From positions 8,139 through 72,138 of the forward strand of contig JBECKW010000017.1 of assembly GCA_040235505.1 (NCBI GenBank): a stretch of DNA of 64,000 nt, read 5' to 3'. The DNA is from Desulfobacterales bacterium (GTDB taxonomy: Bacteria > Desulfobacterota > Desulfobacteria > Desulfobacterales > JAFDDL01). The translations under genes and the position numbers were made by a program. Shown here piece after piece: positions 2,382 to 36,987 of this stretch (its first letter is position 1; each line of letters opens with the position of its first letter). The notes beneath the pieces were generated by a model, which saw nothing but the letters and a program-made list of their open reading frames with translations, was not told the origin of the DNA and ran no database searches.

Positions 2382-2468
2382 TGGTGCGAGAGGGGAGACT
2401 TGAACTCCCACTCTGTCGCCAGAGCTGGATCCTAAGTCCAGTGCGTCTACCAATTCCGCCACTCTCGC
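2382..2468 (-). tRNA. tRNA-Leu (anticodon TAG), CCA encoded
   Basis: Minus-strand read: GCGAGAG...CTGGA-CTTAGGA-TCCAG...long variable arm...GGGAG-TTCAAGT-CTCCC-CTCTCGC-ACCA. A 7-bp acceptor stem, an anticodon loop with TAG and a type-II variable arm all fold by hand. Confidence 0.9.
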
Positions 2469-3583: not shown

Positions 3584-3695
<112 letters not shown>

Positions 3696-5326: not shown

Positions 5327-5581
5327 AAATGCATTTGCTATGAACCTTTATGCAAAGTAAAATTATATCTGTTTGATTTAGCAGACAATACTGTTAAACC
5401 ATGGGGAATAGCATACTAGAACAAAAAAACACTTCTCCCTTTGAAGCCAATAACAGATTGAAAAAATTACTTATTTTTAGCTAAGAGCAATAGAGTTCGA
5501 CAGAGGTTTTTTACCTAATATTAAGTAATTTTTTTCACACATAGAAGTGCTGTGTGTAGATGGCAGGACTATTGGTGCTGA

Positions 5582-5711
5582 GTGCTGAGTGACTGCGAAA
5601 GACGGTGAAGATATATAAGGTTATAACGGTATACAGTCCAAGATATACGGTAAAAATAAAGTGCACACCGTAAACCGCATACCGTTCACCGTTTTCGCAG
5701 TTTCTCACCAC
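5582..5711. repeat. Long imperfect inverted repeat (27-28 nt arms, 75-nt spacer) built from tandem words
   Basis: Left arm 5582-5609 is gtgctgagtgactgcgaaagacggtgaa. Right arm 5685-5711 is ttcaccgttttcgcagtttctcaccac. Hand pairing gives 24 Watson-Crick pairs, 1 G·U, 2 mismatches and 1 bulge. The spacer carries further acggt/accgt words. Confidence 0.6.
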
Positions 5712-5716
5712 CCCTT

Positions 5717-6676
5717 TCAATTCGTAACCCAGATATAATCGGCCGAATGGAGAACAATCGGTTCATCCGGTTCCGTCAGCACAATTGTGCGAAAGCAGGC
5801 GCCGTTTCGTCTGTAAGCCCGGTCGGGAATCCCGAATTTGTAAATGATGTGGCCATTGCCGGCCAGCACTACCATGGAAGATTCAGACAGATGCTCTGAA
5901 ATGGTTTCAGCCATGGCCTCGTCCCATACGCATTGGGCGGCATAGAAATTATCAAAATTATCAAACCCGGGCACCTGATGCTTGCCGAAAATTTTCCGGA
6001 CATACTCCTGATGGGTTTTGTTGCCAAGATCGATGGTTTTCGGCAGGAATTTTTTTTCGTCCGCCGAAAGGGTATCGAGGCCGCCTGTCGCGATTTTGGG
6101 TGGGATGTGGAAGGGGATATTTAAAGCAACAAGCGAGAGATGCTTTTCCCGGGCCAATAAGAAGATATCGCGGTATAAAGAAAAAGGGTATCTCCAATTG
6201 GCGTACCAGTGAAGCGTCGCTATCAGCCGTTTTTCATCCAGACGGCCCGATGTCCACAGATCAAGCTGGGGCTGATAGGTGCGATCCACCATTTCGATAC
6301 CGATCTTGAGTCCCGGATCTATTTCCGAAAGACGCCTGATAATGCGCTGCTGAACCTGATGATGACTTTGATTGTTATGGTTTTCACCGATATAAACGAT
6401 TCGCACGGCCCGAATCTCGGAGATTAATTGATCGAATGAAATCGAGGTTCCATCGATACCGGCAAGAATGGTGTTTTCCGGATAAGAAGCGGTCATGGAC
6501 GCCTTTTCGGGGATCCCGCCTTTTTGAGCGAAACAGCCCGGGACCGTGATCACCAGGCAGATGCCCAGAAACGCGACAGAGAAAAAAAAGGGGCTGGGTT
6601 TCAACGATGCCATCATGAATATTATTTTACGATGTTCGCAAAATGAGTACCAGGTATTTTTCTCCCAAACCTGCAT
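5717..6676 (-). CDS. ChaN-family (haem-binding/Tiki-like) lipoprotein
   Basis: 319 aa. Contains VYIGENHNNQSHHQVQQRII and LAGNGH, blocks I recognise from ChaN-like proteins. Has a signal/lipobox-like ITVPGC. The real start is probably the internal MMASL at about 6616. Confidence 0.6.
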   Translation of the reverse strand: MQVWEKNTWYSFCEHRKIIFMMASLKPSPFFFSVAFLGICLVITVPGCFAQKGGIPEKASMTASYPENTILAGIDGTSISFDQLISEIRAVRIVYIGENHNNQSHHQVQQRIIRRLSEIDPGLKIGIEMVDRTYQPQLDLWTSGRLDEKRLIATLHWYANWRYPFSLYRDIFLLAREKHLSLVALNIPFHIPPKIATGGLDTLSADEKKFLPKTIDLGNKTHQEYVRKIFGKHQVPGFDNFDNFYAAQCVWDEAMAETISEHLSESSMVVLAGNGHIIYKFGIPDRAYRRNGACFRTIVLTEPDEPIVLHSADYIWVTN

Positions 6677-23755: not shown

Positions 23756-24740
23756 AAATCCATATCTTCTGTTTCTATTGGGGCTCGTTCCCCTGCTGGC
23801 GGTGTTTCGAACCCGGCGGCGCCGTCCCCTTCACGTGGGCGTCTCCACACTTCGTCCGGTCAAAACGCTCCCCTCCGGCATGTTTGCCACCCTGGCCCGG
23901 ATGCTTCCGGTGCTCAAATACGGCGCCCTGTGCCTGATGGTCATTGCGCTTGCCCGGCCCCAGTGGGGCACCCGGGAAGTCAATGTCCGCACCGAAGGCA
24001 TCAACATCATTCTGGCGGTGGATCTTTCCGGAAGCATGGCGGCCCTTGATTTCAACAAAAACGGAAAAATCATCGACCGGCTGGAGGCGGCCAAGGGCGT
24101 TATACAGGACTTTATCAGTAAGCGCTCCGGGGACCGGATCGGCCTGGTGGTGTTCGGCTCCGAGGCCTATACCCAGCTTCCCCTCACCCGGGATTACAAC
24201 ACCATTTCGGAGATCCTCCAGCGGCTTAAAATCGGTGCCGCCGGACAGAGCACCGCCATCGGGGACGCCATCGGCATCTCGCTGAAACGTCTGGAAGACA
24301 TCAAGGGAAAATCGAATATCATCATTCTGCTCACCGACGGGCGGAGCAACGCCGGAACCCTCTCTCCCGAAGCGGCGGTGGATATTGCCGCTCGGAAGGG
24401 CGTGAAAATTTACACCATCGGTATCGGGGGTGAGGGCCGGGCCCCGTTTGCCGTGAATGTTCCCGGATTCGGCGTGAGATATGTCTATCAGCAGGTGGAC
24501 ATTGACGAAAATGCGCTGAAGGAAATCGCGAAAAAAACGAACGGCCAATATTTCCGGGCGGAAGATTTGAAGGGGCTTGAAAAAATATACAACACCATCG
24601 ACCGGCTTGAAAAGACCCAGGCCATCGTCAAAATCTACGACAACTATCGGGATCTATATCCCTACAGCCTCTTTCCTGCGTTTGCGCTGCTCGGGCTTTG
24701 GATCCTCCTGGCTCATACACGGTTTTTGAGGCTGCCATGA
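23742..24740 (+). CDS. batA: vWA-domain membrane protein BatA
   Basis: (V)FRFENPYLLFLLGLVPLL is the typical BatA N-terminus. MIDAS motif is ILAVDLSGSM. I chose the GTG at 23742. The in-frame ATG at 23712 and the ORF-track start at 23595 are alternatives. Confidence 0.8.
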   Translation: MFRFENPYLLFLLGLVPLLAVFRTRRRRPLHVGVSTLRPVKTLPSGMFATLARMLPVLKYGALCLMVIALARPQWGTREVNVRTEGINIILAVDLSGSMAALDFNKNGKIIDRLEAAKGVIQDFISKRSGDRIGLVVFGSEAYTQLPLTRDYNTISEILQRLKIGAAGQSTAIGDAIGISLKRLEDIKGKSNIIILLTDGRSNAGTLSPEAAVDIAARKGVKIYTIGIGGEGRAPFAVNVPGFGVRYVYQQVDIDENALKEIAKKTNGQYFRAEDLKGLEKIYNTIDRLEKTQAIVKIYDNYRDLYPYSLFPAFALLGLWILLAHTRFLRLP

Positions 24741-26560
24741 GTTTTTCAAACATCAACATGCTATGGCTCATCTGGGCGGTGCCGGTCATGCTTCTGGTGT
24801 GCCTCTGGGGGTTTCGGAAACGGAAAAAAATCCTTACCGAATATGCGTCGGGAAAGGGGATTTCGGCCATATCCCCGAACATATCCCCTTTCCGCCGATG
24901 GCTTAAAATTATTCTCCTCATGGTGGTAATTCTCTTGACCGCCGTCTCCCTGGCGGGACCCCAGTACGGATTCACCTGGAAAAAAATCGATCGCCGGGGC
25001 GTGGATCTGGTTATCGCCCTGGACTGCTCCCGAAGCATGCTGGCGGAGGACATCAAACCGAACCGGCTGAAACGGGCCAAACGGGAGGTGCTCGATCTTC
25101 TGGGCATGCTCCAGGGGGACCGGGTAGGGCTTGTGGCCTTTGCCGGCACCGCATTTCTGCAATGTCCCCTGACTTTGGACTATGAAGGCTTCAACCTGTT
25201 TCTGGGGGCTTTAAACCCGGATTTCCTGCCCGTGGGGGGCACCGATCTGGCCGCCGCCATCAATACCTCCGTATCGGCCTTCAATCTGGAGGATGCCACC
25301 GACAAGGCGATTATCCTCATCACGGACGGGGAAGCCACCGGGGAGAGCCCGCTGGAGGCGGCAAAGGCAGCCGCCAAGGACGGTATCAAGATTTTCTCCA
25401 TCGGCATCGGCGCCAAGGACGGTGCTCCCATTCCCAGTCCGGACGGCGGATTCGTGAAAGATCGCAAAGGCAACATTGTACTGAGCAAGCTCGACGAGGA
25501 CACCCTGAAACAGCTGGCCACCGTGACCTCCGGTGCCTATGTCCGATCGGTGGCCGGAGATATGGGTCTGGATGTCATCTACAAAAAGTATATCCGGGGA
25601 ACCATGAAATCCGCAGAACTGGGGGAGCAGAAAAGCAAGGTGTTTGAAAACCGTTTTCAGTGGGTGCTTGCCTTGGCCTTCGGGCTTTTCGTTCTTGAGA
25701 TCCTGCTTCCGGAAAGAAAGCCGGCGGCGATCTGGGTGCTGGTGTTTCTGGCCGCAGCCTCCCCCCGGCCCGTATCGGCTTCGGAATTGAAGGATGCGCT
25801 GCGTCAGGGGGAGTCCGCCTACGCTTCCGGGAATTATGACGCGGCGATACAACACTTTATCACCTCCCAGTTGGATGCTCCCGAAAAAGCGGGAATTGCC
25901 TACAATTTAGGTAATGCACGCTATAAAAACAAAGACTATGACGGCGCCATCCAGGCATACCGACAGGTGCTTGACTCCAAAGACAAATCCCTGAAGGAAA
26001 AAGCCCTATACAACATGGGAAATGCCTATTACAAAAAGGGAGATTTCGACAAGGCAATCGAGAATTATAAAACCGCTCTTTCCCTGGACGCAGGCGATCA
26101 ACAGGCCCGGGAAAACCTGGATTTTGTTAAAAAAATCAAGAAAAATCCACCCAAGCAATCGTCACAGGATCAGCAGAACCAGAAAAATCAGAAGAACCAG
26201 AAAGACCAGAAAAATCAGGAACAGAAGAAGGATAAGGACGAGGAGAAAAATAAGCAGGACGAAAACCAGGGGAAAAACAGTTCGGAGCAGCAGCAGAAAA
26301 ACACCGAAAATCAGAAACAACAAAAGGGAAACGACCAGGAGAAATCCCAGGAGCAGCCTTCCGAATCACCGAAGCAAAAAGAATCGCAACCCTCTCAGCC
26401 GGAGGAATCACAGCAGCAATCCGCCGGACAGAACCAGGCCGCCACCCCCGATGAAGAATCGCTCCGCCAGGCCGAAAAAATGCTCAACCGGCTGCAGGAC
26501 CAGCCCGGAAAGGCCATGATGCCGGCCTATGGTCAGCGGCAAGTGGAAAAGGATTGGTAG
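24737..26560 (+). CDS. batB: BatB-like vWA protein fused to BatC-like TPR region and a Q/K/N/E-rich tail
   Basis: ATGA start/stop overlap with batA. Contains MSFSNINMLWLIWAVPVMLL and the MIDAS motif VIALDCSRSM. TPR repeats include YNLGNARYKNKDYDGAIQAYRQVL and YNMGNAYYKKGDFDKAIENYKTAL. These are followed by about 130 aa of low complexity. Confidence 0.8.
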   Translation: MSFSNINMLWLIWAVPVMLLVCLWGFRKRKKILTEYASGKGISAISPNISPFRRWLKIILLMVVILLTAVSLAGPQYGFTWKKIDRRGVDLVIALDCSRSMLAEDIKPNRLKRAKREVLDLLGMLQGDRVGLVAFAGTAFLQCPLTLDYEGFNLFLGALNPDFLPVGGTDLAAAINTSVSAFNLEDATDKAIILITDGEATGESPLEAAKAAAKDGIKIFSIGIGAKDGAPIPSPDGGFVKDRKGNIVLSKLDEDTLKQLATVTSGAYVRSVAGDMGLDVIYKKYIRGTMKSAELGEQKSKVFENRFQWVLALAFGLFVLEILLPERKPAAIWVLVFLAAASPRPVSASELKDALRQGESAYASGNYDAAIQHFITSQLDAPEKAGIAYNLGNARYKNKDYDGAIQAYRQVLDSKDKSLKEKALYNMGNAYYKKGDFDKAIENYKTALSLDAGDQQARENLDFVKKIKKNPPKQSSQDQQNQKNQKNQKDQKNQEQKKDKDEEKNKQDENQGKNSSEQQQKNTENQKQQKGNDQEKSQEQPSESPKQKESQPSQPEESQQQSAGQNQAATPDEESLRQAEKMLNRLQDQPGKAMMPAYGQRQVEKDW

Positions 26561-26572
26561 GTAAATGACAAG

Positions 26573-26800
26573 GCACAAAGGCACAGAGGCATCCCGGCGC
26601 CGGGATAAACTGCGGCACAGAGGAACGACAAAAGGCCGTCGCCAAGGAATCAGATTTTGAAATCATTTTTCAAGGCACAATCATCCATGCTTTATGGAAA
26701 GTTCATGAAACGCTTCGTTCAGAACTCTCGGAAACGCTTTTTATCTTTTCCTTTGTGCCGCAGTTTTTCCCGGCGTCGGAAAGCCTCTGTGCCTCTTTGC
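26573..26800. repeat. 51-nt inverted repeat pair (44/51 complementary) separated by 126 nt, made of ggcacaaag/ggcacagag words
   Basis: The left arm is 26573-26623. The reverse complement of the right arm (26750-26800) differs from it at 7 of 51 positions. Each arm carries an internal palindrome (atcccggcgccgggat). More ctttgtg words continue to about 26850. Confidence 0.7.
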
Positions 26801-28546
26801 TTTCGCTTCTTTGTGTCTTTGTGCCTTCTCTTTTTTATGCCTTTGTGTCTACCCGCTTCGTCATGGGCCCAGCAGGCTTCCGTTGACACAACCCAGACAA
26901 CCCTGGATTCCCCCATCCAGCTTTCCGTCACGATGAGTGCGGGCTCCGGTACTGTGGATACCAGCGGTATAACGGATTTCAAGATTCTCTCCCAATCCAG
27001 CAGCAGCAGCGTTCAGATCATCAACGGCCGCGTCAACAGTGAGCATACCAAAACATACTCCCTTCTTCCGCTTCGGGAAGGACGGCTCACCATTCCATCA
27101 CTGCCGGTGACCGTTGACGGCAAGACCCGCTACACCACCCCCATCACCATTGACGTTACAAAAAGCGCGGCAACCTCCGCCTCTTCCGAAAACGTTCGGG
27201 TCACTGCGAGCGTTAGCGACGAAAAACCCTATCTGGGCCAGCAGTTCGTCTACACCTTCCGGCTGCTCTACGGCGTTCAGATCACCAACACCAGTTATGA
27301 TGCACCCTCCTTCGATGGTTTCTCCGCAACCCAGATCGGAGATCAGCAAACCGCCCAGCGGATTATCGGCGGCAAGCGCTATCAGGAGGTCACGATTTCG
27401 TACCTGCTGATGCCCCTTAAGACGGGCCCCCTCACCATCTCCCCGGCCCAGCTCAAATGCGATGTGGTAACGTCCAGCCGCAGCAGCCGCTCTCCCTTCG
27501 ATTCGTTCTTCAACGATCCTTTTTTCGGGGGATCCCAGCTGGAAACGCGGGTGTTCAGGACCGAACCGGTCACCATCAAGGTGCAGCCGCTGCCGCCCTG
27601 GACGGGCAGCGAACCGTTTTCGGGCCTTGTGGGTGAGTTTGAGATGAAATCCGAACTGGCATCCCATAAGGCGAACCTCGGCGAGTCGGTGACCCTCTCC
27701 GTGACCCTCCAGGGGAATGGAAACCTTCAGGATGCCGACAGGCCAAAGATTCAAGTCCCCGACGCTTTCAAACAGTATGCGGATCAGCCGGAAAGCGATG
27801 TGAAACTCGGCGCCGACGGCTATAGCGGAAGCAGGATTTTCAGGACGGCCCTGGTGGCGGTCAAGTCCGGTTCCTACACCATCACCACGGCCCCCGTGGT
27901 TTATTTCGACCCGGCAAAAAAAGCCTACCGCCGACTGGCACCGCCGCCGCTTTCGATCGAAGTGACCGCCTCCGGAGCACCCATTGAAACACCGAAGGTG
28001 TTTTCTCCCCTGCAGGCCGGCGGAAGCGCCTCTGAACTTCAAAAAAACAAGGTTGATTTCACCGGCCGGGACATTCTTTCCATTAAAACGGGCCTGGACG
28101 CTCTCTCCAGCCAGGAGCCGATGCCCACCGGGTGGTTTATCGGTTTTCTTCTGGCCCCCGGAGTTCTTTTTCTGGCGATTTTCTGCCTGTTTCGTGCGCT
28201 TAAAAAGGACGAGCGGCCGGCTGCCGAAATGGCCCGGAAAAGCCGGATCGCATTGAAAGATGCGGCGCAGGCCACCGGTAATGAAACGGACCTTCTTTCA
28301 TCACTTTACCGGAGCCTGCTGTACGCCGTTTATGCCAGGGCCGGCAGCCTTGGTGAATCTCTGACCTCGGGAGAGGCGGAAACCCTGCTGAAACAAAACG
28401 ATGTGGATTCCGAAACCGCCACCGCCGTTTCAGAGCTCCTGGGCCGCCTTGAATCTGCACGCTTCGGAAAAGGCACGCTTTCCATGGAGCAGCAAAAAGC
28501 ACTGGTATCTGAAACCCGCAAACTGGTGAAAGGGCTCATTCCATGA
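26705..28546 (+). CDS. batD: BatD-family protein (oxygen-tolerance operon component), secreted with a C-terminal TM
   Basis: Large beta-rich protein at the BatD position. It has a signal peptide ending ...LPASSWA-QQ and a late TM segment (WFIGFLLAPGVLFLAIFCLF). The start is uncertain: TTG 26657, ATG 26687 and ATG 26705 are all in frame. Confidence 0.75.
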   Translation: MKRFVQNSRKRFLSFPLCRSFSRRRKASVPLCFRFFVSLCLLFFMPLCLPASSWAQQASVDTTQTTLDSPIQLSVTMSAGSGTVDTSGITDFKILSQSSSSSVQIINGRVNSEHTKTYSLLPLREGRLTIPSLPVTVDGKTRYTTPITIDVTKSAATSASSENVRVTASVSDEKPYLGQQFVYTFRLLYGVQITNTSYDAPSFDGFSATQIGDQQTAQRIIGGKRYQEVTISYLLMPLKTGPLTISPAQLKCDVVTSSRSSRSPFDSFFNDPFFGGSQLETRVFRTEPVTIKVQPLPPWTGSEPFSGLVGEFEMKSELASHKANLGESVTLSVTLQGNGNLQDADRPKIQVPDAFKQYADQPESDVKLGADGYSGSRIFRTALVAVKSGSYTITTAPVVYFDPAKKAYRRLAPPPLSIEVTASGAPIETPKVFSPLQAGGSASELQKNKVDFTGRDILSIKTGLDALSSQEPMPTGWFIGFLLAPGVLFLAIFCLFRALKKDERPAAEMARKSRIALKDAAQATGNETDLLSSLYRSLLYAVYARAGSLGESLTSGEAETLLKQNDVDSETATAVSELLGRLESARFGKGTLSMEQQKALVSETRKLVKGLIP

Positions 28547-30980: not shown

Positions 30981-33224
30981 ATGGTCGCAAAAAAAAGATC
31001 GGAAAAATACTTCAAATTCATCATCTATCTGGTGGTGGTGGTGCTGGTAAATTTGGCGGGGCTCTCTCTGTTTTTCCGGTGGGACCTGACCAAGGACGGT
31101 GTGTACTCCCTCTCCGATGTAAGCAAAAAGGTCGTCAGCACACTGAAGGAACCTCTCACCGTCAAGGTTTTTTTCACCAAAAACCTTCCGGCCCCATACA
31201 ATGGCACTGAACGTTACCTTCGAGACCTTCTGGAGGAGTATGCCGTCCATGGCAACCGGTATTTCAACTACCAGTTTTACGATGTCAGCCCCGCGTCCGA
31301 AGGTGCCGCATCCTCTTCAACTGAAAATCAGCAGATGGCCTCGAGCTACGGCATTCAGCCGCTGCAGATCCAGCAGCTGGAAAACGACGAGTTCAAGTCC
31401 ACGCTGGCGTATATGGGACTGGTCATCATTCATGGCGACATCGTGGAAAAGATTCCGTCCATCACGTCCACCGACGGGCTTGAATATAAGCTGACCACCG
31501 CCTTTCAGAAGGCAAACAACAAGATCAGCACCCTGCTCGCCCTGTCCCAAAATATTCAGGTAAAATTGATTCTTTCCGACACACTGAAATCCGTGGGCCC
31601 GGTCTTCGGCATCGACGAACTGCCGAAACTTCCCGATACGGTGGAGGCTGCGGTAAAGAACTTGAACCGGACCAACTACAACCGCATCTCTTATTCATTC
31701 TCGAACCCGTCCACCGACGAGGAGAAGAAAGCGCTTTCGGACAAATATCATCTCATGCGCCTCAAGTGGCCCGATATTGAATCGAAAAACATAGCCGCCG
31801 GAAACGGGGAAGTCGGTCTGGTCATGAGCTATGGGGATAAAACGGCTTCCCTTCCCATTTTAACGGAAGTTCGCATACCGCTTTTCGGTACCCAGTATCA
31901 CCTGGCTTCGGCGGATGAAATTAAAGAGATGATCGACGACGAAGTGGAAACCCTGACCAACAGCAATGAGAACATCGGATATCTGGCGGATCACGGCACC
32001 CTCTCCCTGAACAGCAGCCAAGCGTCCATGATGGGGCTTCAAACCAACGGGGATCTAACCACCTTCAACGAACTTCTTGGAAAAACCTACAACGTTCGCC
32101 AGATCAATCTCGCCAAGGATTCGATCCCCCCGGACCTCCAATGCCTCATCATTGCCCGGCCCACCGAACCGTTCACGGATTGGGAGCTGTTTCAGATCGA
32201 CCAGGCCCTGATGCGCGGGCAGAACCTTGCGCTCTTTCTCGAACCCTTCAAGGAGACCGTCAACAAGCAGGCAGCCGCGATGGGTTTCCAGAATCAGGTC
32301 AGCTATGAACCCCTGGATACCGGTCTGCAAAAGCTTCTGGCGCATTGGGGGATCGAGATCGGAAAGTCCGTCGTGATGGACGAAAAATGCTATAAACAAA
32401 CCCGTTCCCAAGCCATGGGCGGGGGAAAGCAGCCCATTTATTATGCGCCCATCATTCAGCCGGAAAACATCAACCAGTCGCTTCCGATGATGCACAATAT
32501 CAAGGAATTTCTGGCACTCAAGGATTCTCCTCTGATTCTTCACGAGGACACCCTCAAGAAAAACAATCTGAAGGCAACCGTGGTGTTTTCCTCCTCCGAC
32601 AAATCCTGGGAGATGAAGGCGCCCATCAACCTGAATCCCATGTATCACAGCCCTCCCACCTCCGACGACGCATTTAAGAAAGAGCCCCTGGCCTGCCTGG
32701 TCGAGGGAGACTTCCCCAGCTATTTTGCCGGAAAGCAGATACCGGAAAAGCCGTCGGACGAGAGTAAGGATAAGGACACGGATAAAGATAAGGAGAAGAA
32801 AAAGGGGGATGTCCAGGAAGAGGCTCTCAAGGATTCGAATAAAACCGCATCCGTGGCGTCCCAGGTCACCAGCGAAGGCGCCATCATTGCAAAAGGAAAG
32901 CCCGCCAAAGTCTTTATCATCGGCTCCGGCGAGATGTTGCGGGACGATCTCCTCGATACCGACGGGACCACCCCCAACAGCATGTTCGTGATGAACATGA
33001 TCGACACCCTCAACGGCCATGAAGATATCGCGCTCATGCGGAGCAAAACCCAGAGTCAAAATCCGCTGAATAAAACCAGTCCCCTGCTTAAAACAGTGGT
33101 GAAAGCGTTCAATATCGCCGGACTTCCGATTCTGGTGGTATTTTTCGGTCTGTTTGTCTGGATTCGGCGGCATGTCCGCAGAAAAGCAATTCAAAAGATG
33201 TTTGAAACCAATCAAGGAGCATAA
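30981..33224 (+). CDS. GldG-like ABC-transport auxiliary protein (ABC_transp_aux family)
   Basis: 747 aa with N- and C-terminal TM anchors around a large periplasmic region. It sits at the position conserved after GldA/GldF-like genes. The call is by architecture and context. Confidence 0.75.
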   Translation: MVAKKRSEKYFKFIIYLVVVVLVNLAGLSLFFRWDLTKDGVYSLSDVSKKVVSTLKEPLTVKVFFTKNLPAPYNGTERYLRDLLEEYAVHGNRYFNYQFYDVSPASEGAASSSTENQQMASSYGIQPLQIQQLENDEFKSTLAYMGLVIIHGDIVEKIPSITSTDGLEYKLTTAFQKANNKISTLLALSQNIQVKLILSDTLKSVGPVFGIDELPKLPDTVEAAVKNLNRTNYNRISYSFSNPSTDEEKKALSDKYHLMRLKWPDIESKNIAAGNGEVGLVMSYGDKTASLPILTEVRIPLFGTQYHLASADEIKEMIDDEVETLTNSNENIGYLADHGTLSLNSSQASMMGLQTNGDLTTFNELLGKTYNVRQINLAKDSIPPDLQCLIIARPTEPFTDWELFQIDQALMRGQNLALFLEPFKETVNKQAAAMGFQNQVSYEPLDTGLQKLLAHWGIEIGKSVVMDEKCYKQTRSQAMGGGKQPIYYAPIIQPENINQSLPMMHNIKEFLALKDSPLILHEDTLKKNNLKATVVFSSSDKSWEMKAPINLNPMYHSPPTSDDAFKKEPLACLVEGDFPSYFAGKQIPEKPSDESKDKDTDKDKEKKKGDVQEEALKDSNKTASVASQVTSEGAIIAKGKPAKVFIIGSGEMLRDDLLDTDGTTPNSMFVMNMIDTLNGHEDIALMRSKTQSQNPLNKTSPLLKTVVKAFNIAGLPILVVFFGLFVWIRRHVRRKAIQKMFETNQGA

Positions 33225-33225
33225 C

Positions 33226-34305
33226 ATGAAATCAAAGGAATATATCATCCTGGGGGTGATCATTGTCCTTTTGGGGGCCTATCTTTTTCTGAGAAACACC
33301 AACCGCTCCCACTATGAACTGCCGACCCTGCCCGCGGTCGCCGATAAAGACATTTCCCGTATCGAAATCTCGACCTCTACCGGAACCATCGATCTTACCC
33401 TCAGCGGTGACCAGTGGCAAATCGGCAAAAACAAATATCCGGCGGACGCGTCGAAGGTCAAAGAGATGCTGTCCGCGCTCGGCAGCCTCAAGCTGACCGC
33501 TCTGGTTTCGGAGGCCGGGAGCTATTCCCGCTATGATCTGACGGACGACAAGAAAATCCAGGTCAGTGCCTGGGCCGGCGACCGGAAGATACGGGATTTT
33601 GCCATCGGTAAAACGGCGGAAACCTATCGGCATACCTTTGTTCGCCTGGGCAAGGATCCCAACGTCTATCAGGCCGAGGATAATTTCCGCCAAACCTTCG
33701 ATCAAACCGTAGAGGGCCTGCGGGATAAAACCGCCCTTTCCTTTAAAGTCCAGGATATCACCGGAATCGACATCGCTTCCGGTGACCGTCATTGCACTCT
33801 CTCCCTGGAAACTCCGCCGGCGGAAAAAACCGCTTCCGAAGCGCCTTCAGCGGAGAAAGCGACGGAACCGGCGAAAACAGAAAAATCCGCTACTGAAACA
33901 TCCTCAACAGAGAATACGGCTGTATCGGCTAAAACGGAAAAAACAGCTTCCGAAACACCTTCAACGAAGAAACCTGCTGAAGCGGCGAAACCCGTCTGGA
34001 AGGCGGAAGACGGCACCCCGGCCGATTTTGAAACCGTCAAGCGTCTGCTTTCCCAGCTGGGTTACCTGAATTGCAGCCAGTACCTGGAAAACAAGAAAAA
34101 GGAAGATTTCCGTGAGCCCATCCTTACCGTCACGTTAAAGGGGACGAAAACCTATTCCCTGTCACTTTTCAGCAAAGATGCCTCCCAGAAGGAATATCCT
34201 GCGATTTCCAGCCAGAATGATTACCCGTTTTCACTCGACGAGACGACGTACAAACGGCTCAAAGATACCGTGGAGAAGCTACTGGGCACAAAAACAGGGA
34301 CCTGA
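33226..34305 (+). CDS. DUF4340-like protein with three 19-aa tandem repeats
   Basis: ATG at 33226 with AAGGAGC RBS (the ORF-track start at 33154 overlaps gldG). Has an N-terminal TM (YIILGVIIVLLGAYLFL). It is the usual fourth gene of GldAFG-like clusters. Confidence 0.65.
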   Translation: MKSKEYIILGVIIVLLGAYLFLRNTNRSHYELPTLPAVADKDISRIEISTSTGTIDLTLSGDQWQIGKNKYPADASKVKEMLSALGSLKLTALVSEAGSYSRYDLTDDKKIQVSAWAGDRKIRDFAIGKTAETYRHTFVRLGKDPNVYQAEDNFRQTFDQTVEGLRDKTALSFKVQDITGIDIASGDRHCTLSLETPPAEKTASEAPSAEKATEPAKTEKSATETSSTENTAVSAKTEKTASETPSTKKPAEAAKPVWKAEDGTPADFETVKRLLSQLGYLNCSQYLENKKKEDFREPILTVTLKGTKTYSLSLFSKDASQKEYPAISSQNDYPFSLDETTYKRLKDTVEKLLGTKTGT

Positions 34306-34337
34306 GATAGGGGAGAAAGCGATACTTTTAAACGGAT

Positions 34338-34521
34338 GAACGTCCAACGTTCAACGTCCGGCGTTCAACATCCTATGGAAGGATAACCTCCCTTCTGAAA
34401 AATGCGTGTGAAGCATTATCTATTGAAGGGATTTACACCTGGTGCCGTGGAGATCTGGTGTATCAAACGGCAAAAAGTCCTTCTTGGACGTTGGACGTTC
34501 GATGTTCGATGTTGGACGTTT
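34338..34521 (+). repeat. 36-nt inverted repeat arms (word repeats aacgtcc/aacgttc) around a 112-nt core; predicted plus-strand RNA stem
   Basis: Left arm 34338-34373 pairs with right arm 34486-34521. Hand pairing gives 26 Watson-Crick pairs, 7 G·U pairs and 3 mismatches. All 7 wobble pairs exist only in the plus-strand RNA sense. Confidence 0.7.
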
Positions 34522-34719
34522 GTTTGTTTCGATTCGATATTGTTTTTTTGACCATACCGGTATATAGGGGTCACGGGCATATTTTGCATGAATTTAGGGG
34601 GAGGGGATAGAAATATCCGTTATGGATATCAAGAGCGTGTCCATTTGATCCCTATCTGCAACCATCGATTATTTTTCTAAAATCGAGCCGTTCATTAAAA
34701 AGAATTTCAAGGAAGACGT

Positions 34720-36987
34720 ATGAACATTATCCTGATCTCACTGATCATTCTCGCATCGCTGGCTGTTTTTGACCTGGTTGTCGGCGTCAGCAATGACGCC
34801 GTTAATTTTCTGAATTCCTCCATCGGATCCAAGGTGGCGCCGATGTATGTGATCCTGATTGTCGCCAGCCTTGGAATACTGGCGGGCGTTACTTTTTCCA
34901 GCGGGATGATGGAGGTGGCCCGGAAGGGTATTTTCCACCCCCAAAACTTCAAAGCGCTCGATCTGATGATGATCTTCCTGGCGGTGATGATCACCGACAT
35001 TCTGTTGCTGGACATGTTCAACACCTTCGGTCTTCCCACATCCACCACCGTCTCCATCGTCTTTGAACTACTGGGGGCGGCCGTGGCCGTTTCGATTATC
35101 AAAATCATGAATTCCGGGGAGAGTCTCACCACCCTGTCGGAATACATCAATTCCAGCAAAGCACTCGGGATCATCTCCGGCATCCTTCTGTCGGTGGTAG
35201 TCGCCTTTTTTTTCGGCGCCGTCATTCAATATGTGACCCGGCTTATTTTCACCTTTGATTATCAAAAGCGCATGAAGCGTTATGGCGGCCTCTGGGGTGG
35301 CGTCTCGCTTTCCATGATCACCTATTTCATTCTCCTCAAAGGCGCCAGTGGCGCCTCTTTTATTTCTCCGGAAACGGTCCAATGGATGCAGAGCCATACG
35401 ACCCTGATCCTGATCGGCAGCTTTTTAATATTTACCATTTTATTTCAGATGCTTCTGCTTTTCACACGCATCAATATTCTGAAACCGATCGTGCTCATCG
35501 GCACCTTCGCTCTGGCCATGGCCTTTGCCGCCAATGATCTGGTGAATTTTATCGGTGTCTTCATGGCCGGCATGAATGTCTTTCAGGTTGCAAAAGCCGC
35601 CGCCGATCCTTTAACTGCCTCCATGGCCGCCCTTCAGGCAAAGGTGCCCATCAATACTTACCTGCTGCTTCTGGCGGGGGTTATTATGGTCTTTACCATG
35701 GCGCTTTCTAAAAAGGCCCGAACCGTTACGGAAACCACGGTCAATCTGAGCCGTCAGGATGAGGGTATCGAACGCTTCGGCTCTTCCCCCCTCTCCCGGG
35801 TGGTGGTGCGAATGGCCTCCACGCCCATTGACCTCGTCAAACGGTTGACCCCCGCGCCCGTCGGACGATGGGTGGGAGGACGCCTTATGCCACCCGCGTT
35901 CAAGCAAAAGCGGTCATCCGGAGAAGAAACGCCTTCCTTTGACCTTCTGCGGGCATCCGTCAACTTGATCGTGGCAAGCGCGCTGGTATCATATGCAACC
36001 TCCTACAAGCTGCCGCTGTCCACCACATACGTGACATTCATGGTGGCCATGGGTTCCTCCCTGGCCGACCAGGCCTGGGGACGGGAGTCCGCCGTCTATC
36101 GGGTGACCGGCGTCCTGGCTGTCATTGGCGGCTGGTTTCTGACAGCCTTGGCGGCCTTTACCGTCTCCATGGTATTCGGTTACATTATTTTTCATTTAAA
36201 GCTGCTGGGCGCCTTTGTACTGCTTGCCTTTGCGGTGTTCATGATCTGGCGAAATCATCACGTGCATGCAAAACGAAAAGAGGAGGAGGACACTCTGACC
36301 GCCTTCAGCCTGAAAACAGTGACCACGCCCCAGGCGGCCATTACCATGTCCTTTGAACATGCCGGTGAGTTCCTGAAGGAAATTGGGAGCAATCTGGCCA
36401 ACTCCTTTGACGGACTTTTTCTTGAAAACCGCACCATTCTCAAAGCCGCCCGGGAAAAAACGCGGTGGATCCAGATGTGGGCGAATGTCATTATGGCCAA
36501 CATTTTCAAGACGCTCTATTTACTGAAAAAGTATGACCTCAACGACACCCAGAAATACGTCTCCACCATCCGATCCCTGCAGGAGCTCGCCGAAGGCCAC
36601 CGGGACCTTGTCATCCGCGCCTATCAGCATGTGGATAATGTCCATGCGGGGGTAACGGTCGCGCAACGTGAGGAGCTGGAAAAGATCAAAACCTGCGTTG
36701 TGGGATTGCTGAGCGATGTCTCCGGCATGCTACTGGAAAGAAAAGTTATTGATTACGGATCGTTATTACGGCAGCGCGATACACTGCAGCAGCTGGTGGA
36801 CGAATTTGACAAGCGGCAGATCGAACGTATCCAGAAAAGAGAAACCAAGACCCGGCTCAGCATCCTTTTTTACGGCTTTCTGGACGGCTGCTTGAAAATT
36901 TCAGACCAGACCCTGGCGCTGGTGTCCATCTTCAGAGATTCGTTCATGGAGGAAAATGGCTTGAAAGAAACCTCAAGCCAGGGGTGA
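34720..36987 (+). CDS. PiT-family inorganic phosphate transporter with long C-terminal cytoplasmic (PhoU-like?) extension
   Basis: 755 aa. GVSNDAVNFLNSSIGSKV and FAANDLVNFIGVF are duplicated PiT-type signatures. There are about 11 hydrophobic segments, then about 250 aa of hydrophilic helical tail. Confidence 0.8.
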   Translation: MNIILISLIILASLAVFDLVVGVSNDAVNFLNSSIGSKVAPMYVILIVASLGILAGVTFSSGMMEVARKGIFHPQNFKALDLMMIFLAVMITDILLLDMFNTFGLPTSTTVSIVFELLGAAVAVSIIKIMNSGESLTTLSEYINSSKALGIISGILLSVVVAFFFGAVIQYVTRLIFTFDYQKRMKRYGGLWGGVSLSMITYFILLKGASGASFISPETVQWMQSHTTLILIGSFLIFTILFQMLLLFTRINILKPIVLIGTFALAMAFAANDLVNFIGVFMAGMNVFQVAKAAADPLTASMAALQAKVPINTYLLLLAGVIMVFTMALSKKARTVTETTVNLSRQDEGIERFGSSPLSRVVVRMASTPIDLVKRLTPAPVGRWVGGRLMPPAFKQKRSSGEETPSFDLLRASVNLIVASALVSYATSYKLPLSTTYVTFMVAMGSSLADQAWGRESAVYRVTGVLAVIGGWFLTALAAFTVSMVFGYIIFHLKLLGAFVLLAFAVFMIWRNHHVHAKRKEEEDTLTAFSLKTVTTPQAAITMSFEHAGEFLKEIGSNLANSFDGLFLENRTILKAAREKTRWIQMWANVIMANIFKTLYLLKKYDLNDTQKYVSTIRSLQELAEGHRDLVIRAYQHVDNVHAGVTVAQREELEKIKTCVVGLLSDVSGMLLERKVIDYGSLLRQRDTLQQLVDEFDKRQIERIQKRETKTRLSILFYGFLDGCLKISDQTLALVSIFRDSFMEENGLKETSSQG

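Follow-up and report, generated by a model that had tools for sequence, protein, structure and literature searches.

A gene-less hairpin with heptamer-array arms between DUF4340 and PiT genes of a Desulfobacterales bacterium, probably a miniature relative of S23p cassettes

The stretch of DNA analysed here, which we call the window, comprises 64,000 nucleotides (64 kb) from a Desulfobacterales bacterium. Three genes of interest lie on its plus strand, all in the same direction: an ABC_transp_aux gene (30981-33224), a DUF4340 gene (33154-34305) and a gene for a PHO4/PiT-family transporter (34720-36987). A hairpin element at 34330-34529 occupies the spacer between the last two, 24 nt after the stop codon of the DUF4340 gene and 190 nt before the start of the PHO4/PiT gene. 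Its left arm (34330-34373), of the SAACRTC type, opens with the boundary AAACGGATGAAC and continues with about five units, GTCCAAC GTTCAAC GTCCGGC GTTCAAC ATCC, an array that can also be parsed as (G)AACGTC CAACGTT CAACGTC CGGCGTT CAACATC. After a gene-less core of 112 nt (34374-34485), the right arm (34486-34529) comprises five SGAYGTT units (GGACGTT GGACGTT CGATGTT CGATGTT GGACGTT) and ends with the boundary TGTTTGTTT. This right boundary pairs with the left one via G·U and is degenerate, with GTTTGT in place of GTTCAT. A T-rich tail, CGATTCGATATTGTTTTTTTGAC (34530-34552), follows 3' of the stem and is a possible but weak terminator tail. The outer flanks, AAAG...CTTT, are inverted, not direct.

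The unit of the arms is SAACRTC, with the complement GAYGTTS. That both arms consist of tandem words had been noticed in a reading of the bare sequence, hereafter the first-pass annotation, and TRF indeed finds tandem heptamers in both. The arms are stop-free in all frames, and the only ORFs, of 21-57 aa, run through them, in line with the earlier view that the core has no convincing ORF. A comparison with Rfam, also proposed at that stage, gave no match at E <= 10 in 34250-34760; at gathering thresholds, the whole 64-kb window contains two tRNA genes only (2385-2468, minus strand, and 3584-3657, plus strand) and no rRNA. Of note, the DUF4340 gene itself contains a 57-nt tandem repeat (33823-33990; 2.9 copies, 72% match), which encodes a low-complexity linker rich in K, T, E, S and A.

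Counted position by position, 34338-34373 and 34486-34521 form 26 Watson-Crick pairs, 7 G·U pairs and 3 mismatches, exactly as the first-pass annotation had described its 36-bp stem. As for its statement that the non-canonical but allowed pairs are all one-sided wobbles, the seven G·U pairs of the plus strand stand, but not every non-canonical pair is G·U, as one of the three mismatches is C·A and two are of other kinds. Over the full 44-nt arms (34330-34373 and 34486-34529), there are 31 Watson-Crick pairs, 10 G·U, 1 C·A and 2 other mismatches; a repeat search independently returned the same 44-nt arms and 112-nt core. Comparison of both strands with shuffled sequences bore out the expected strand-specific folding. 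The plus-strand RNA folds at -86.8 kcal/mol (z = -8.5), with none of 200 dinucleotide shuffles as good, whereas the minus-strand RNA, at -63.8 kcal/mol (z = -5.05), is 23 kcal/mol weaker. In the plus strand, single mismatches divide the outer helix into stretches of 22, 6, 10 and 3 bp; its longest uninterrupted stretch is thus 22 bp, compared with 10 bp in the minus strand. The core does pair internally, but the small ggaagg...ccttc hairpin once proposed for it does not form in the minimum-energy fold, in which ggaagg pairs with 34477-34484. In a gapless hairpin scan of the 64-kb window, only this element and another at 26570-26803 were this strong.

The one-sided wobble is thus real, and the plus-strand RNA is the sole strand that forms a long helix at this locus. 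It lends some credit to a reading in which selection at this very locus maintains a dedicated RNA structure or processing site of the plus strand that keeps the ABC/DUF4340 transcript apart from that of PiT, with the G·U pairs as its signature. The 10 G·U pairs against 1 C·A over 44 pairs depart from balance (two-sided binomial p ~0.01). They stem from both C>T- and A>G-type differences, so that a single mutational (deamination) bias is insufficient to account for them, and the plus strand is the coding strand of both neighbours.

Two other hairpins of the window point in different directions in this respect. The element at 5560-5725, with arms of ACGGT/ACCGT words, directly follows the stop codon of a minus-strand gene (5717-6676) and also folds better on the strand of the neighbouring genes (-64.9 kcal/mol on the minus strand vs -50.3 on the plus strand, with 8 vs 4 G·U pairs), as a dedicated RNA might. 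By contrast, the strong hairpin at 26570-26803 shows no asymmetry, its G·U and C·A pairs numbering three each, which goes against that reading. Taken at its full extent (26563-26834), the latter hairpin has 56-nt arms built from the 8-nt words AAGGCACA / TGTGCCTY around a 122-nt core and folds equally on both strands (-129.6 and -131.6 kcal/mol). A plus-strand ORF (24698-26560) ends immediately before this hairpin, and the metagenomes in which the arms described below are multicopy contain its left arm (26577-26623) in multiple copies as well. Upstream of it, near the 3' end of that ORF, are tandem repeats of 9, 18 and 27 nt (CAGAAGAAC-like; 26169-26254).

We scanned public metagenome contigs with the pattern GAYGTTSGAYGTTSGAYGTT and obtained at least 120 loci. 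The 120 loci listed contain at least 41 distinct elements in which a GAYGTT-type array lies no more than 300 nt 3' of an AACRTC-type array, so the search for similar arm and core arrangements that had been suggested from the window alone was fruitful. The polarity of the pairs is convergent in 53 instances among the matches listed, vs 9 divergent ones, each with a weak two-unit array. As array polarity is invariant under reverse complementation, this bias is a real property of the elements. Arrays of the family occur in the same polarity in Desulfobacterales genomes as well. Every relative among the matches listed folds into a long hairpin, the core of which measures 8-280 nt, and many share the boundary (A)AAGATGAAC ... 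GTTCATCTTT(T). The window copy has this boundary and the same unit: it combines a 5' SAACRTC array, a 3' GAYGTTS array and ATGAAC/GTTCAT-type boundaries, the features that define the family. In terms of sequence, the arms of the window element thus belong to a dispersed heptamer-array family. The host GC of the relatives ranges from 0.43 to 0.65, which indicates that the family is not restricted to one lineage.

The window sequence itself matches four sediment metagenome runs only. In these source metagenomes, the right arm has a depth of 14-16, vs ~3 for the single-copy flanks, and it continues into many different flanks: the arm is multicopy in the source community. One source-metagenome contig carries a further copy, with a 47-nt core, and a related left arm from another locus reaches a depth of 137 in the same run. 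For the family as a whole, we saw no target-site duplication, no associated transposase and no empty site, and mobility is therefore inferred solely from dispersal and copy number. The window copy has the traits of a MITE, being short, ORF-less and multicopy, with terminal inverted repeats, and the proposal of the first-pass annotation that it might be a non-autonomous mobile RNA/DNA element fits well with a dispersed family that has heptamer-array arms.

What the longer members of the family contain is informative. At six loci, the arrays stand 430-510 nt apart; those of L054, L073, L082, L110 and L124 enclose an ORF of ~122 aa, and so do those of L061. The product of this ORF belongs to PF05635 (E = 4e-15) and TIGR02436 (E = 6e-26), i.e. 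it is the 23S rRNA intervening-sequence protein, 'S23p', with 2RLD as a relative in the PDB. PF05635 is homologous to the DGR accessory protein Avd (PMC10053308). A protein search for S23p returned at least 7946 clusters at E <= 1e-10. Desulfobacterales, the order to which the nearest genomic relative of the window also belongs, Desulfosarcina and Desulfatiglandaceae are named among the closest S23p matches listed.

The cassettes follow the plan AAAAGATGAAC(RTCSAAC)n, S23p gene, (SGAYGTT)nCATCTTT, and all those of the SAACRTC subfamily have AAAAGATGAAC(RTCSAAC)n on the 5' side and (SGAYGTT)nCATCT on the 3' side. The right arms of cassettes and derivatives number from 4 to 20 units. In all eight independent cassettes with gene calls (L173-L181), the S23p gene follows another gene of that strand, at a distance of 40-120 nt from its stop codon, and four more cassettes agree on this co-directional position, as far as crude ORF calls can tell. 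The cassettes are often found between the cistrons of an operon. Their contexts include, in order of transcription, epimerase, S23p and Poly_export; NTP_transferase, S23p and rfbC; T2SSE, S23p and T2SSF; UvrB, S23p and UvrC; fumarase followed by S23p; and GFO_IDH, S23p, a hexapeptide transferase, S23p and EpsH, where there are two cassettes. The window copy likewise sits just 3' of its DUF4340 gene, as full-length cassettes do after their host genes.

Shorter forms connect these cassettes with gene-less hairpins. At L174 19246-20058, the initial ~25-40 nt of the S23p start region are joined directly to the 3' end in each of three tandem ORF-less copies, which makes them plain internal deletions. 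Other ORF-less copies have preserved either a 3' module, GAGCGAAGCGAYATCATTATTCG, or the final codons of the ORF. In the window, tblastn and nhmmer found no S23p gene, and comparison of the 112-nt core with other cores and with the S23p cassette profile detected no similarity. The motif GTATCAAACGGCAAAAAG in the core was considered as a remnant of the S23p C-terminus and discarded as a chance resemblance, blastn and nhmmer against 2000 shuffles having yielded nothing. We infer from its arms and boundaries alone that the window copy descends from an S23p cassette.

The arm words are not the same throughout. A distant S23p paralog (L173 5145-5540) is flanked by inverted arrays of GTTRGTT and AACYAAC, which shows that the architecture is common while the word differs. 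The notion of a family defined by architecture rather than by sequence, put forward in the first-pass annotation, agrees well with S23p paralogs that have different words around them on the same plan. As for the cargo, it may not always be S23p: at L153 1123-1763, convergent AACATCC/GGATGTT arrays surround a hydrophobic, non-S23p ORF of ~170 aa, followed by a short second hairpin.

Several loci display more complex arrangements. Mosaic or nested arrays are found at L173 6170-6585 and 12040-12270, where an AACRTC array is directly followed by a GTTGGTT...AACCAAC hairpin; in the former, ~20 CGATGTT/GGACGTT units are nested in a hairpin whose arms are GTTGGTT/AACCAAC arrays. Two S23p cassettes share one eps operon at L176 8874-10481, with one host gene between them; their right arms consist of 11 and 9 CGATGTT units, all perfect. 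The uvrB/uvrC cassette (L181 9888-10637) has two left arms and three right arms, the latter each with a repeated segment of ~100 nt. Some cassettes (L054, L082, L124) have the ATG of the boundary, together with the heptamer array, in the reading frame of S23p, which would add N-terminal 7-residue repeats (NIEHRTS-like) to the protein, while in others a short uORF ends before the S23p start. We considered that the arrays might be peptide-coding, with ATGAAC... read as MNVEHRTS repeats, and rejected this idea, since the reading frame is not maintained and the ATG belongs to the palindromic boundary. Because the arrays are stop-free in every frame, ORF calls beside such elements are inflated.

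With these relatives at hand, the significance of the wobble pairs can be reassessed. Arms taken from different elements pair at 83% on average and own partners at 89% (p = 2e-5). Any two inverted SAACRTC arrays thus pair at ~83%, and good pairing is to be expected whatever their history; the window arms, with 70-72% Watson-Crick pairs, fall below this value for random family arrays. Among the matches listed, the 41 relatives have 88 G·U against 92 A·C on the plus strand, with no over-dispersion (chi-square p = 0.76), and non-redundant S23p cassettes, whose sense strand is known, have 43 G·U and 40 A·C. In the relatives, the asymmetry of fold energy does not follow gene direction, with which it is consistent in ~11 cases and inconsistent in 9, by crude ORF calls; high-GC loci are unreliable for gene direction because the arms are open in all frames. 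As G·U and A·C are balanced family-wide, the one-sided wobble belongs to the window copy and provides no evidence of family-wide selection for RNA. This copy had, in addition, been picked out for its asymmetry. The wobble asymmetry is therefore a trait of one copy, neither a family signature nor proof of selection, and the argument that one-sided G·U pairs betray selection for an RNA helix is not supported.

The same locus in a related genome also weighs on the matter. A look-up of the exact PiT protein of the window gave no entry. In a genome scan, the closest genome for the window PiT (75% identical) was that of a Desulfobacterales MAG, L004. Its orthologous DUF4340-PiT spacer is without the heptamer element and contains a different hairpin instead (L004 3545-3740), in which TTTTCAAAACGT ... 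ACGTTTTGAAA surround two tandem 25-mers (CCCGACACAGACGGGATCAAGCCCA) and which is followed by a terminator-like CCCAGGTGGG...CCCACCTGGGAAAAA. The DUF4340-PiT spacer seems to collect hairpin elements. Another candidate for an orthologous locus, L060, with flanking ORFs of 383 and 753 aa, was dismissed, as tblastn detected no homology and the resemblance is a coincidence. Given an orthologous spacer without the element and arms that are a multicopy repeat, the idea of a dedicated regulator loses its footing. Together with the lack of wobble bias in the relatives listed and on the known sense strand, the low share of Watson-Crick pairs and the choice of this copy for its asymmetry, these observations make a locus-selected, purpose-made RNA very improbable, and the element is apparently a dispersed, selfish repeat and not a purpose-built regulator of its neighbours.

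Two other identities were examined for the site and set aside. A PhoB-type operator for the PiT gene is hard to reconcile with a period of 7 bp, with the dispersal of the arms in many copies and with an ortholog that has no such element. An integron attC site could account for GTCCAAC/GTTGGAC, which fit R boxes of the forms RYYYAAC and GTTRRRY, but attC boxes are single, the arms are tandem arrays and GTCGAAC units do not fit; moreover, the flanking genes are syntenic with those of L004 and hence are not cassettes.

It may also be asked whether the element works mainly as a transcription terminator or as a 3' stabiliser of the upstream mRNA, exapted in the manner of REP or ERIC sequences and with no involvement of RNase III. 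Its position 24 nt past the DUF4340 stop codon, the T-rich stretch after it and a terminator-like call at 34492-34522 are compatible with such a role, as are the many relatives that begin with an A-run and ATGAAC and end with GTTCAT and a T-run, and the several relatives that lie between convergent genes. The call is nevertheless weak, comprising 14 pairs of which 3 are G-C, and its U-rich run is paired in the full fold; more generally, most of the T-run is engaged with the A-run as part of the stem. AT-rich stems of 30-45 bp are unlike canonical terminators, which have a short G+C-rich stem and a free U-tract directly after it, and cassettes between the cistrons of operons (T2SSE-T2SSF, rfb, UvrB-UvrC) occupy places where termination would be harmful. 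We consider this function unlikely as the main one.

Alternatively, DNA might be the functional form, with the arrays as putative protein-binding sites, for a pentameric Avd-like S23p or a recombinase, or as hairpin or cruciform substrates for mobility, the RNA stem being incidental. The family-wide balance of G·U and A·C is what a DNA palindrome predicts; array polarity is strictly fixed, boundary motifs are conserved, and one-word arrays can be nested in other-word hairpins (as at L173 6170-6585). Avd, a relative of S23p, binds nucleic acid and the reverse transcriptase in DGRs. The 7-bp period is, however, out of helical phase, and the sense-only orientation after genes in eight of eight cases points to a dependence on host transcription. 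In the window copy, the plus-strand RNA is far superior to both the minus strand and the duplex palindrome. On balance, a function in DNA form is doubtful.

We favour the view that the element is a gene-less, non-autonomous member of a dispersed palindromic family related to S23p cassettes, to which we assign a probability of roughly 0.6. According to this proposal, short copies arise by internal deletion, and unit numbers shift by slippage. The window copy would be read through from the ABC-aux/DUF4340 transcript, and its plus-strand RNA would then form a 44-bp stem with a perfect 22-bp segment. An uninterrupted plus-strand helix of this length is compatible with RNase III cleavage. By analogy with IVS stems, RNase III might cleave the stem, which would at least block 3' exonucleases; processing by RNase III is plausible on these grounds. 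Cleavage or blocking would determine where the ABC-aux/DUF4340 mRNA ends and part it from the PiT transcript, presumably as a side effect of a selfish insertion, with no dedicated regulator at work.

The 23S rRNA IVSs and their S23p ORF have raised questions of origin, mobility and purpose since about 1990. Judged by sequence, the full-length cassettes have the anatomy of an S23p-carrying 23S rRNA IVS, outside rRNA. Like the S23p IVSs of Coxiella, Leptospira, Xanthomonas and Brucella, the members of the family have long terminal inverted repeats around a loop that can hold a PF05635 ORF, read in the direction of the host transcript. The ORF is often decaying in the IVSs, and the window copy is ORF-less but has an IVS-like long and stable stem (44 bp, -86.8 kcal/mol, z = -8.5). 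The best documented case is the IVS of Coxiella burnetii, of 428 nt, which is inserted in helix 45 of the 23S rRNA, has a 28-bp terminal stem and carries the S23p ORF in sense orientation (PMC4990558). Its stem contains two to three tandem heptamers, GACAGAT, just upstream of the ORF, in a strain-dependent number, and RNase III cuts its stem at the first repeat, as established in vitro and by RACE mapping (PMC4990558). The IVSs of Leptospira, Salmonella and alphaproteobacteria are RNase III substrates as well (PMC4990558). The comparison with RNase III substrates drawn in the first-pass annotation was thus apt, since IVS stems, including heptamer-containing ones, are proven substrates (PMC4990558). 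Nevertheless, the IVSs are located in 23S rRNA (helix 9, 25 or 45), whereas the window element lies between protein-coding genes; its family word is SAACRTC instead of the Coxiella word GACAGAT; and the family is high-copy and dispersed, unlike 23S rRNA IVSs, for which RNase III cleavage is proven, while here it is proposed by analogy.

Other classes of small repeats resemble the element in some of its features. MITEs such as Correia/NEMIS of Neisseria and ERIC/IRU of enterobacteria are, like it, small, ORF-less, multicopy and intergenic, with terminal inverted repeats. Both Correia/NEMIS and ERIC/IRU are co-transcribed with their neighbours, and Correia hairpins are cut by RNase III. In contrast with the unique terminal inverted repeats of Correia and ERIC, the arms of the window family are arrays of a 7-nt word, and no TA or other target duplication was seen; whereas MITEs have autonomous partners, the ORF-bearing relatives encode S23p only and no known transposase. 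REPIN/REP sequences are also dispersed, non-autonomous, multicopy intergenic hairpins made of two inverted units and a short spacer. The window arms, however, have no GTAG-type REP motif and are not palindromic REPs, and the associated gene is S23p, vs RAYT in REPIN systems.

The cyanobacterial STRR and the TAACTGA repeats, both known from filamentous bacteria, are, as the window arrays are, intergenic tandem heptamers of variable copy number. STRR arrays can reportedly extend helix P12 of the RNase P RNA. The window word is AACGTCC/AACATCG-like and differs from the STRR/TAACTGA words CCCCAGT, TTGGTCA, CAACAGT and TAACTGA. TAACTGA repeats occur in Beggiatoaceae, cyanobacteria and Bacteroidetes, in a patchy distribution across phyla, and are nearly all direct: of 170 sets, a single one is inverted (PMC4679880). 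In the window family, by contrast, inverted pairing in one fixed polarity is the rule, with S23p as cargo.

In the literature searched, we found no paper describing these heptamer dimers, and no description of heptamer-armed S23p cassettes outside rRNA or of their miniatures. For S23p/PF05635 outside rRNA, we came across passing mentions only, e.g. of PF05635 genes between operon genes such as cmr3 and cmr2 (PMC3936711). An IVS-type element outside rRNA, in miniature form and with heptamer-array arms, is what is new here. It is tempting to go further and to speculate that word-array cassettes encoding S23p, an Avd-like four-helix-bundle protein, constitute a large, unrecognised class of mobile elements inserted in sense orientation after genes, including in operons and in 23S rRNA. 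The arrays would then be candidate recognition sites for pentameric S23p or an RNA- or hairpin-based substrate for insertion, and ORF-less copies would be mobilised in trans, fragmenting transcripts via RNase III. We regard this extension as no better than a tentative possibility.

The significance of the finding rests on the family more than on the single window copy. On the practical side, the arrays break metagenome assemblies and the stop-free arms lengthen ORF calls, and annotation pipelines would gain by recognising them. The family also offers hundreds of independent insertions for studying target choice, the processing of mRNA by RNase III and the function of Avd-related proteins. Our study suggests that rRNA IVSs are just the conspicuous part of a far larger set of cassettes and miniatures with word-array stems and S23p cargo, and that such elements invade ordinary genes and operons at their 3' ends, in Desulfobacterales as well as in other sediment and soil bacteria.
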